Below are positions 16,616 to 19,023 of a stretch of DNA of 64,000 nt, in pieces (position 1 is the stretch's first letter; every line of letters starts with the position of its first letter). The notes under the pieces were generated by a model. The model did no database searches. It was not told the DNA's origin and saw only the letters and a program-made list of their open reading frames with translations. Source of the DNA: Candidatus Micrarchaeota archaeon. Lineage in GTDB: Archaea; Micrarchaeota; Micrarchaeia; Anstonellales; Bilamarchaeaceae. The translations under genes and the position numbers were made by a program. The stretch lies in NCBI GenBank assembly GCA_022627495.1, contig JAKEGJ010000021.1, positions 78,612-142,611 on the forward strand. The letters run 5' to 3'.

Positions 16616-17626
16616 ATGAAGATAGCGATAAGCGGATTCGGCAGGATTGGGAAATCATTCTTGAAGGCGGCGATAAAGCAGGGCGCACTCGGCAGGGATT
16701 TCGATGTTGCCGCCATAAACACGAGAAGCCCGGCCGAGCAGCATGCGCACCTTTTTAAATACGACTCGGTCTACGGAAGGTTCGAAGGTAAGGCCGAGGC
16801 CAAGGACGGCAACCTCATCGTGAACGGCTGCCCCATCAAATGGATTACCGAAACGGACCCGCTCAAGCTCCCGTGGAAGGAGCTGGGGGTCGACCTCGTG
16901 CTCGAGAGCACGGGCGTTTTCCGCTCCAAAGCCGACGCCGAGAAGCATATCAAGGCGGGCGCCAGGATGGTTTTGATTTCAGCCCCGGCCAAGGATGCGA
17001 AGGAGGTCGATGCGACAGTAGTCCCTGGCGTCAACGACCACATCGTCAACAAAGGCATGTCGATATTCTCGCTCGCATCATGCACGACGAACTGCCTTGC
17101 CCCAGTGCTGAAGGTAATTGATGAAAAATTCGGAATCGAAAGCGGATTTTTGAGCACGGTGCACGCTTACACCAACGACCAGAACATCGTGGACGGCAGC
17201 CACAGCGACTTGCGCAGGGCCCGCGCCGGGGCGATGAACATCATCCCCACAAGCACAGGCGCCGCGAAGGCCATAGGCGAAGTGCTCCCCGCGCTCGCAG
17301 GGAAGATGGATGGCGTGGCGTTCCGCGTCCCGGTCGCCTGCGGCTCGATGAACGACATGACGCTTCTGCTCCGGAAGGATGCGACGAAGGACGAGATAAA
17401 CGCCGAACTCAGGAGGGCGTCGAACGAGGAGCTCAAGGGCATACTCGGCTACACTGAGGATGAGATAGTCTCCCAGGACGTCGTCGGGGTGCCGCTTTCC
17501 TCCCTGGTGGACGGGAAGCTCACGAAGGCCAAGGGCAGGCTGGTCAAGATTTCCGCCTGGTACGACAACGAATTCGGCTACTCCAACCGGCTTGTGGATT
17601 TCGTCAGGAAGCTCGCCAAGACCTAG
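16616..17626 (+). CDS. gap: Glyceraldehyde-3-phosphate dehydrogenase, class I (bacterial/eukaryal type)
   Basis: It has MKIAISGFGRIGKSF and the active site ASCTTNCLAP, plus WYDNEFGYSNR. GGTGAG lies upstream of the ATG at 16616. Confidence 0.9.
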   Translation: MKIAISGFGRIGKSFLKAAIKQGALGRDFDVAAINTRSPAEQHAHLFKYDSVYGRFEGKAEAKDGNLIVNGCPIKWITETDPLKLPWKELGVDLVLESTGVFRSKADAEKHIKAGARMVLISAPAKDAKEVDATVVPGVNDHIVNKGMSIFSLASCTTNCLAPVLKVIDEKFGIESGFLSTVHAYTNDQNIVDGSHSDLRRARAGAMNIIPTSTGAAKAIGEVLPALAGKMDGVAFRVPVACGSMNDMTLLLRKDATKDEINAELRRASNEELKGILGYTEDEIVSQDVVGVPLSSLVDGKLTKAKGRLVKISAWYDNEFGYSNRLVDFVRKLAKT

Positions 17627-19023
17627 AATTCCAGACCCTGCATGAGCGCGGCCCCCTGCAGCTTGGCAAGAGCCTTAATCTCGATTTGCCTAATCCTTTC
17701 CCTGCAAAAGCACATGCTGTCTTCGATTTCTTGAAGAGTCTCCTCTTTTCTTCCGGATAAGCCGAACCTTCTTTCGAGTATTTCCCGCTCAAATGGATTG
17801 AGGATTTCCAGCAGGCCCGGAATCTGCCGCTCCAGCTGCATCTGGCCTAGCATGGCATCAGCGCCTTTAGCATCTGGAGCGCTCAGCCGCCTGCTTAGCG
17901 GGTCGGTAAGCTGGCACATTTTGGAATTTGCCTCCAATGCCGATTTGACCGCCCTTTGGGGCATGCCGATAGCTTTCGAAATCTCCAGGACAGTGGGCGA
18001 CCTGCCAAACTGGACCTGGTGGGATTTCACATACCTGCGGATAGTCTGCAGGGATTCGAGCGTGCGGACCGGAACCCTCACCGACCTGGCCTTGTCCGCT
18101 ATCGCCCGGGATATCGAATGCCGTATCCAGAAGGACGAATATGTGGAAAACCGGTTCCCTTTCCGATAATCGAATCGTTCGAGGGCCTTCAAAAGCCCGG
18201 CGCTGCCTTCGCTCATAAGATCCCGGAATTCCATGCCTGGATGGTGCTGGTATCTTTTTGCTATTGATGCAACGAACCGCTGGTTTGCGCATATGACCAG
18301 GCCGGAGATTTTCCTCCGGGTTGCCTCCACCCGCTCCAGCTCCTTTTTGGCTTCCGGCTCTTTTCCATTCTGCTTGCCGCATGCAAGTACGTCTCTGATT
18401 ACCTCTGCCCTTTCAGTGAACCGGATGAAGGCCTTGATAAGAACCGATTCCTCCTCTTCTGACAGCTTAAGGTTCCTTTTCTTTTTGAACCTCTCGACGA
18501 AGTGAATGGCCGCCGCCTCGCCATAGGTCAGGCTCACCGGGACAGCGCGAAACATCAGGACCGCGAGCCTTGCCCGGATTTCACGGACAGCAGCGCTTTC
18601 TTCGGCCAGCAAGTCCTCTGCACCGCCTGCGCCGCCTTCTTCAAGAATGTCCCTGATCTCGGCGGACCAGTCCAGGAACTTGCGGTAGGCATCTTTCGCG
18701 AATTCGGCTTCTGCACGTGTCAGGGGAATGCGCATGTCCGCCTTGTATTCCAGGGTCCGCGTCAGCATGCCCTCTTTTTCGCTAAGGCGGAGGGGGATTG
18801 CATTTGCGAGTGTCTCAGGCCCCAAGGAAAATCGCTCGAACTCGGGTTTTTCTGCGCGTCTTGCAGAAACATGCTTAGCCAACGTGGCAGGGGGCTTGGA
18901 TGGGCCTGGGCGCATACGAAGCGATTGTGAAGGGTTGTGCTTAATAATGTTAAGGTCTGCTGCGCTTTCCCCCATGCAACGGGCAGCCCGAAAGCGCTTG
19001 GGAGAACTGGCGCCGGAGGCCAT
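17623..19023 (-). CDS. Sigma-70 family (RpoD-like) factor with a roughly 230-aa N-terminal extension
   Basis: Region 2 is [73 protein letters not shown]. A region 3-like segment is [21 protein letters not shown]. Region 4 is [11 protein letters not shown]...[28 protein letters not shown]. The start is uncertain (ATG at 19023, 18975 or 18915). Confidence 0.85.
   Translation of the reverse strand: [466 protein letters not shown]

Follow-up and report, generated by a model that had tools for sequence, protein, structure and literature searches.

A 64-kb window of archaeal DNA (64,000 nucleotides (nt), positions 78,612 to 142,611 of contig JAKEGJ010000021.1 in assembly GCA_022627495.1, from a Candidatus (Ca.) Micrarchaeota archaeon; coordinates below are those of the window) contains, on the minus strand, a gene for a protein of the bacterial sigma-70 type. 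The gene is intact, belongs to an archaeal chromosome and has orthologues in the same neighbourhood, and the protein is probably functional. The interpretation that we favour, with a probability of roughly 45%, is that this protein is a domesticated, sigma-70-derived DNA-binding regulator of transcription that would operate independently of a bacterial core enzyme in a Micrarchaeota lineage near Ca. Bilamarchaeum. Under this scenario, an RpoD/RpoS-like gene would have entered the ancestor of the lineage, taken on an archaeal promoter with a transcription factor B recognition element (BRE) and a TATA box, lost region 1.1 and gained a duplicated helical N-terminal module (hereafter N-module) of about 85 amino acids (aa). 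The bacterial core enzyme would no longer be needed; the protein would bind promoter-like DNA at a few sites, recognizing TTGACA-like sequences via region 4.2 and TATAAT-like sequences via region 2.3/2.4, and would modulate initiation by the archaeal RNA polymerase, either by occupying DNA near the BRE/TATA element or through contacts of the new N-module with the polymerase or a basal factor. In bacteria, region 1.1 autoinhibits DNA binding by free sigma-70, and its absence here makes it plausible that the protein binds DNA on its own. Core-independent, specific binding of -10 DNA by a free primary sigma factor has been documented (PMC3035472).

The maximal open reading frame (ORF) spans 17623..19023 (466 codons), as described in an earlier note on this DNA, and contains both protein strings quoted there, although translation is probable only from about position 18915 downwards. 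In Pfam, Sigma70_r2 (PF04542) matches aa 246-313 with 56.2 bits (cut-off 24) and Sigma70_r4 (PF04545) matches aa 404-456 with 37.5 bits (cut-off 24.1); Sigma70_r3 (PF04539), aligned to aa 323-368 over positions 1-46 of its 78, reaches 23.7 bits, just under the cut-off of 25.3, and region 3 is covered by the alignments of the RpoD models to the protein. Among the NCBIfam models, the sigma-70 superfamily model TIGR02937 passes its threshold (72.1 bits against 42.9), and the C-terminal ~240 aa, beginning at aa ~210-245, align to the RpoD, RpoS and MzaA models. The scores stay well below those required of RpoD equivalogs (TIGR02393, 184 versus 354; PRK05658, 173 versus 555; PRK09210, 163 versus 572) and of the RpoS equivalog (TIGR02394, 166 versus 379). 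Regions 1.1 (PF03979) and 1.2 (PF00140) find no match in the protein even at E<=10, and in a profile-profile comparison with bacterial RpoD the alignment is restricted to region 2.1. Thus, the claim of a complete sigma-70 factor holds for regions 2 and 4, with region 3 just under its cut-off, but, with neither region 1.1 nor region 1.2 detectable, the protein falls short of completeness by the standard of RpoD. The best matches among solved structures are bacterial SigA/RpoD chains (E 1e-40 to 1e-35, residues 152-391 of the 400-aa form of the query), identity to bacterial RpoD/RpoS is ~40-50% over ~185 aligned columns of sigma2-4, and the AlphaFold2 (AF2) model (predicted local distance difference test (pLDDT) score 79.8) has only sigma factors among its fold matches. 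On the minus strand, these comparisons delimit sigma region 2 (2.1-2.4; 18085..18288), with the core-binding helix and the -10/melting segment, from Pfam, structure matches and residue comparison; region 3.0/3.1 (17920..18057), from the sub-threshold Pfam match, NCBIfam and structure matches; a divergent, shortened region 3.2/linker (17815..17919); and region 4 (4.1/4.2; 17656..17814), with the recognition helix RERIRQIE, from Pfam and residue comparison.

To compare the surfaces of the protein with those of bacterial sigma factors, 11 family members (see below) were set against ~370 bacterial homologues, using E. coli numbering and counting the percentage of cells that keep the bacterial consensus; the roles of the residues were taken from a published account (bioRxiv 10.1101/2020.09.07.285775). 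The consensus is kept in 91% of cells at the -35 contacts R584, E585, R586, R588 and Q589, with the RERIRQIE helix of the window protein exactly matching it; in 68% at 12 positions of region 2.3/2.4 involved in melting and -10 recognition (T429 and Y430 in 10 of the 11 members, W434 in nine and W433 in eight); and in only 41% at eight positions of region 2.1/2.2 that dock on the beta' clamp helices. Within the docking group, neither L384 nor L402 is kept in any member, N409 is kept in two and Q406 in six; position 384 holds Q or Y in 9 of the 11, and positions 402 and 409 hold many different residues. In region 4.1, E555, R562 and F563, which we take to be the flap contacts, keep the consensus in 85% of cells. 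The window copy itself carries the substitutions Q406S, N409S, W433F, Q437H and H455R, and its region 3.2 is shorter than that of bacteria, has no acidic D-E-D-S finger and receives low confidence in the AF2 model. The earlier note had named degeneracy of the DNA- and core-binding residues as grounds for abandoning the sigma assignment; the DNA-reading residues are kept and the core-binding face is partly degenerate. On these alignments, the pattern is one of conserved DNA reading and a relaxed or remodelled fit to the bacterial core.

Several of these features also suit a protein that serves the archaeal RNA polymerase as a genuine initiation factor. Its region 2 would dock on the Rpo1 (A') clamp coiled-coil, which is homologous to the beta' clamp helices, and its region 4 on an Rpo2 element, and it would melt DNA at -35/-10-type promoters together with, or instead of, TBP/TFB. 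The residues of melting and -10 capture are kept even though the members are only ~41% identical to one another, the region 4.1 residues with presumed flap contacts are similarly retained, position 384 has shifted to a new semi-conserved state rather than at random, and the expansion of paralogues described below recalls the bacterial use of alternative sigmas. Such a factor nevertheless seems unlikely to us, given that most of the region 2.2 face appears relaxed and not re-fixed, with positions 402 and 409 variable; that the region 3.2 finger/linker, which threads through the polymerase in bacteria, is short, divergent and poorly modelled here; that -35/-10 motifs are not in excess in the window; and that close relatives live without the gene. 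We place still less weight on the more specific proposal that a bacterial sigma has been re-fitted, through the remodelled region 2 and the new N-module, as a working initiation or specificity factor of the archaeal (Pol II-like) polymerase that opens -35/-10-type promoters; if true, Micrarchaeota would possess an initiation pathway that is a hybrid of bacterial and archaeal elements.

The protein is one of a discrete family, which it took an exhaustive search of 1.84 billion representatives to detect. With the single protein as the query, a word-indexed search retrieved only bacterial RpoD at ~40% identity, and with the family profile it retrieved mostly bacteria and only four family members. 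Relatives over the full length, including the N-terminus (P0122, P0123, P0124, P0126, P0129, P0133 and P0137), score 206-256 bits against ~150-170 for bacterial sigmas, and with the family profile the members score 461-586 bits against 253 for bacteria; P0152 and P0182 are further members. The family comprises ~11 clusters at 50% identity, with intact ORFs in all of these divergent clusters, and a neighbour-joining tree built from sigma2-4 alone groups exactly those proteins that carry the N-module (bootstrap values are given below). The family is rare, because contig scans of 185,579 GTDB species representatives with the sigma protein and the N-module alignment detected no member. The first of two metagenome scans for family members yielded no match, and the second yielded the contig of P0182 and six bacterial SigA loci, which were discarded as family members, their neighbours being L25/Ctc and YceD-like genes. 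The bacterial sigmas P0002, P0016 and P0134 (L001-L003), of which P0016 is located near bipA, have the unusual ..ADK motif (Q437H) that also occurs in the window protein, P0122 and P0123; judged by this motif, these bacterial sigmas could mark the donor lineage.

Several lines of evidence identify the host as an archaeon, as the earlier note had assumed. The radA gene located 1 kb from the sigma gene encodes a protein 88-96% identical to those of Ca. Micrarchaeota and 89% identical to that of Ca. Bilamarchaeum dharawalense, a member of the order Anstonellales (PMC8561730); collinearity with the genome of Bilamarchaeum extends over ~17 kb of the window; and the window includes archaeal genes for a CTP-dependent riboflavin kinase with a helix-turn-helix (HTH) domain, Pelota, archaeal-type PheRS beta, ADP-forming acetyl-CoA synthetase and thiolase+DUF35. 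Archaeal genes lie on both sides of the sigma gene within 1-3 kb. The window derives from a sediment metagenome, and in the Logan independent assembly of the same run a single 48.7-kb contig spans positions 13000-23000 with zero differences and an even depth of 17.4; the organism was not found in the raw reads of two sister runs. Neither bacterial RNA polymerase subunit genes nor anti-sigma genes are present in the 64-kb window, which also has no tRNA or Rfam matches. The sigma gene has 55% GC in a genome of 58% GC, compared to 39-52% in its relatives, so that its composition is largely ameliorated to that of the host.

These results bear on the possibility that the gene is a bacterial fragment, mis-assembled or mis-binned, or that the organism has a bacterial-type RNA polymerase. 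Such an artefact or misassigned host would fit the fact that bacterial RpoD is the closest match of the sigma domains, that gap, next to sigma, is likewise a bacterial-type gene, and that the inspection covers 64 kb of the genome. However, the independent assembly gives the same joins, the gene order recurs on two metagenomic contigs from other samples, the promoter is of the archaeal type, and gap is a native gene of the lineage, with a syntenic and 77% identical counterpart in Bilamarchaeum. A bacterial/archaeal chimera is very unlikely because of the archaeal flanking genes, the identical independent assembly and the even depth; with the chimera part of this explanation largely refuted, we regard the explanation as a whole as extremely improbable.

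The start codon of the sigma gene was examined along with its promoter. The coding signature of the genome is missing from codons 1-60 of the long ORF (GC content at third codon positions (GC3) of 0.43-0.63 versus ~0.74), and the annotated starts differ between two NCBI assemblies, which give products of 400 aa (TTG 18825) and 450 aa (ATG 18975); exact database look-ups found no entry for either the 466-aa or the 400-aa product. A BRE/TATA-like element, TTAACATTATTAAGC (18939..18953, minus strand), is centred ~30 nt upstream of an ATG at 18913..18915 (codon 37 of the long ORF) and lines up with AAAACATTTATAAGC, located upstream of the L007 orthologue. In many window genes, a rare A/T run precedes the start codon by 28-40 nt, as in archaeal promoters with short leaders, and the sigma orthologues in L005 and L008 (both copies) have clear TTTATA(A/T)A boxes at an upstream distance of 28-36 nt from the ATG. 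Because this BRE/TATA spacing in window genes and orthologues fits the ATG at 18915, it is the favoured start, and the gene probably encodes a 430-aa protein and is presumably transcribed by the archaeal machinery. With this start, the N-terminal extension is ~165-195 aa long; the length of ~230 aa given previously was thus too high, and the accompanying observation that the extension has no region 1.1 is sustained by the lack of a Pfam match. Between the TATA element and the start codon lies a CACAAT box (18924..18929, minus strand), which recurs at equal spacing in L007 and is not shared with L005, L008 or L009. The sole sigma-type promoter-like match upstream of the gene (18953-18924) was rejected as an autoregulatory site, and autoregulation is not claimed, because the match overlaps the archaeal BRE/TATA region and the CACAAT box is missing in these three loci.

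The extension preceding the sigma domains consists of three parts, all on the minus strand: a tail rich in Pro, Lys, Arg and Ala (18799..18912), predicted to be disordered (pLDDT <50), with similar tails in orthologues; a first copy of the N-module (IPLRLS...RARLAVLMF, 18550..18798), delimited by alignment, the AF2 model and profile comparison; and a second copy (VPVSLT...RRKISGLVI, 18295..18549), delimited by alignment, self-comparison and profile comparison, that runs straight into region 2.1. That the two copies arose by tandem duplication of an ~85-aa helical module is indicated by the match between the profiles of the two modules (probability 99.7%, E 3.6e-26) and by P0124, whose two copies are 43% identical (E 5e-19); the window protein has the most divergent pair, with copies undetectable by BLASTP against each other, and P0129, P0137, P0152 and P0182 have a single copy. 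Members share the module signature PLxLS..LEKxK..PLTxEEE..IYSRFSERA..NGxE..KELxxVE directly before region 2.1, and the window protein qualifies (alignments A1, A7 and A8). The N-module has no match in Pfam, PADLOC or PHROG, and a fold search returned nothing significant, the best hits being 14-3-3 and spectrin-like helical proteins (E 0.17). Its interpretation as region 1.2 plus a short non-conserved region, suggested by likeness to VPLLTREEEVEL, is unsupported by Pfam (E<=10) and hhalign; descent of the N-module from region 1.2 is possible but finds no support in these comparisons.

A long N-terminal extension in front of an RpoD-like sigma2-4 unit at the C-terminus is also found in MzaA, the sigma of the MZA anti-phage system, and among the NCBIfam and PADLOC models it is the sigma part of MzaA that the window protein matches best. 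This similarity would fit a role in defence, as a decoy or sensor akin to MzaA-like sigmas, or as a factor aimed at the RNA polymerase of a bacterial partner. However, the match (NF041931) scores 196 bits against a cut-off of 800 and aligns only positions 455-703 of 726, leaving the N-terminal 450 aa unaligned; the partner Mza genes and any other defence genes are absent from the vicinity; neither a signal peptide nor a secretion context was seen; and the conserved neighbours are housekeeping genes. Such a role is, in our estimate, highly improbable, and identities as MzaA or another defence protein, or as a phage sigma, were rejected on the NCBIfam, PADLOC and PHROG results.

The genomic neighbourhood of the sigma gene is conserved in part of the family. 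The gene is convergent with gap (16589..17626, plus strand), with a 4-nt stop/stop overlap (CTAG) exactly as claimed previously, and divergent from a mini-gene for an 84-aa membrane protein (19066..19320, plus strand). The mini-gene is indeed divergent from sigma, as the earlier note had it, although its description as VirB2-like finds no support in Pfam, PADLOC or PHROG. In L009 (P0123) the order is mini-gene(-)/sigma(+)/gap(-), and in L007 (P0137), where the 4-nt overlap recurs, it is sigma(+)/gap(-); when these loci are compared with the window, gap is 66-69% identical and sigma only 36-40%. In L004 and L008, sigma adjoins the genes for AMP phosphorylase and an Lrp regulator; the tandem sigma genes of L008 (2235-3494 and 3569-4879) have an Lrp/AsnC regulator upstream and AMP phosphorylase convergent downstream. 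Tandem paralogues are present also in L006 (605-1840 and 2081-3274), and in L011 (P0182) sigma is located between Taw1 and an HTH_10 regulator. All informative contexts of the family (the window, L004, L007, L008, L009 and L011) are archaeal; L005 and L006 are uninformative. The simplest history that these comparisons suggest is an old acquisition in this group of Micrarchaeota followed by fast divergence and repeated loss.

Both conserved neighbours have features of their own. The product of gap is the type I glyceraldehyde-3-phosphate dehydrogenase of bacteria and eukaryotes, not the archaeal type II enzyme, making it a second bacterial-type gene beside sigma; relatives start at Met10 of the window protein (16616). 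The mini-gene product has two hydrophobic helices and shows 64% identity to its positional counterpart in Ca. Bilamarchaeum and, across 50 aa, 60% identity to that of L009; the strong TATA element of the gene (19033-19044) lies ~28 nt upstream of the start, as in a leaderless transcript.

Several findings weigh against the interpretation of the protein as a stand-alone regulator. Matches to sigma-70-type promoters in the window occur at the level expected by chance (25 found versus 23.9 expected) and point to no target sites, and no RNA sequencing run was found to hold the sigma gene. The retained melting aromatics and region 4.1 residues could equally fit action on an RNA polymerase, and the check for a bacterial-type polymerase core covers the 64-kb window alone. 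In the tree of sigma domains alone, the exact family clade appears in only 19 of 50 bootstrap replicates. Among the 34 genes of the window for which GC3 was measured (mean 0.735, standard deviation 0.075), the sigma gene has the smallest value (0.65), and both in Ca. Bilamarchaeum and in a contig with a 96%-identical RadA, gap is followed directly by the mini-gene, with sigma absent; being missing from the syntenic site in two close relatives, the gene is dispensable.

The last two findings are also compatible with a decaying passenger, that is, a horizontally acquired sigma gene without a function that is in the process of being lost, as are the divergence of sigma about twice as fast as that of its neighbours and the substitutions Q406S, N409S, W433F and H455R at residues that are near-invariant in bacteria. 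We consider decay improbable in view of the intact ORFs in all ~11 divergent clusters, the 91% retention of the -35 recognition helix at ~41% overall identity, a family-specific N-module with its own conserved motifs (for example, IYSRFSERA), the conserved archaeal promoters, the synteny across lineages and the tandem paralogues, and the largely ameliorated composition. A domesticated DNA-binding regulator, in which DNA reading would be maintained and the fit to the bacterial core relaxed, remains the interpretation to which we give preference.

Sigma factors and TBP/TFB represent the textbook divide between bacterial and archaeal/eukaryotic transcription initiation. Sigma-70-like genes in DPANN archaea were reportedly noted by Rinke et al. 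in 2013, and the earlier note pointed to such a precedent. It is borne out by Castelle et al. 2021 (PMC8204110), who described sigma-70 genes in DPANN (fam00359), chiefly in Woesearchaeota, ruled out mis-binning, observed the absence of anti-sigma factors and called the mechanism unclear. The fam00359 proteins, like the window protein, are bacterial-type sigmas without an anti-sigma in DPANN genomes that also encode TBP/TFB/TFE; they are known from reports of presence or absence, whereas the window copy, compared with them by description only, comes from Micrarchaeota and belongs to a rare subfamily defined by the N-module and synteny. Sigma factors are unmentioned in two papers on Micrarchaeota genomics, and we found no published study of the function of an archaeal sigma.

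With bacterial RpoD, SigA and RpoS, the window protein shares sigma2, sigma4 and, with a Pfam score just short of the threshold, sigma3.0/3.1, including the identical RERIRQIE helix and the conserved -10/melting segment FSTY..(F/W)WIR; it differs from them in the archaeal host, the lack of detectable regions 1.1/1.2, the duplicated novel N-module, the short, non-acidic region 3.2, the BRE/TATA promoter of its gene and, across the N-module family, the lack of conservation of L384, L402, Q406 and N409. Archaeal TFB positions the polymerase and helps open promoters (PMC7289017). It and eukaryotic TFIIB are functional analogues only, with no detectable homology to the window protein, which has neither cyclin folds nor a zinc ribbon.

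Thus, the occurrence of sigma-70 genes in DPANN archaea is already known; what is new, with fam00359 compared by description only, is a Micrarchaeota subfamily with a duplicated N-module, conserved synteny and archaeal promoters, and an asymmetric conservation of surfaces. With this locus, what had been noted twice in DPANN, as a mere curiosity, becomes a defined family long kept in archaeal chromosomes. The locus could reveal whether a sigma works without its cognate enzyme or adapts to a Pol II-like one, and the N-module sigma illustrates the recruitment of bacterial parts by DPANN genomes.

Other features of the window are peripheral to the sigma gene. Between the mini-gene and radA, always in this position, lies a gene (19557-19877, plus strand) for a 106-aa protein with an N-terminus rich in Gly, Pro and Glu and a conserved C-terminal half (RVVQTDRDKDGNV...), which is 62% identical in Bilamarchaeum and has no family match. 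A 1279-aa ORF (22723-26562, minus strand) with a hydrophobic N-terminal segment has no Pfam match; a 1282-aa counterpart occupies the equivalent place in the contig with the 96%-identical RadA. Long antisense ORFs of 150-390 aa (14567-16519, 19820-20881 and elsewhere, for example 353 aa opposite radA) were rejected as genes; they are frame artefacts of GC-rich DNA, because GC is high at codon position 1 and lower at position 3. Relative to the riboflavin cluster of Bilamarchaeum, the window has an insertion between ribA (GTP cyclohydrolase II) and ribD (6023-9331, minus strand) that encodes two proteins, one a right-handed beta-helix of 743 aa and the other a membrane protein of 324 aa. A 307-aa protein with two stretches similar to DMRL synthase (4453-5376, plus strand) may combine lumazine synthase with archaeal riboflavin synthase, as a fusion or in tandem, and the Bilamarchaeum locus opens with the same arrangement.

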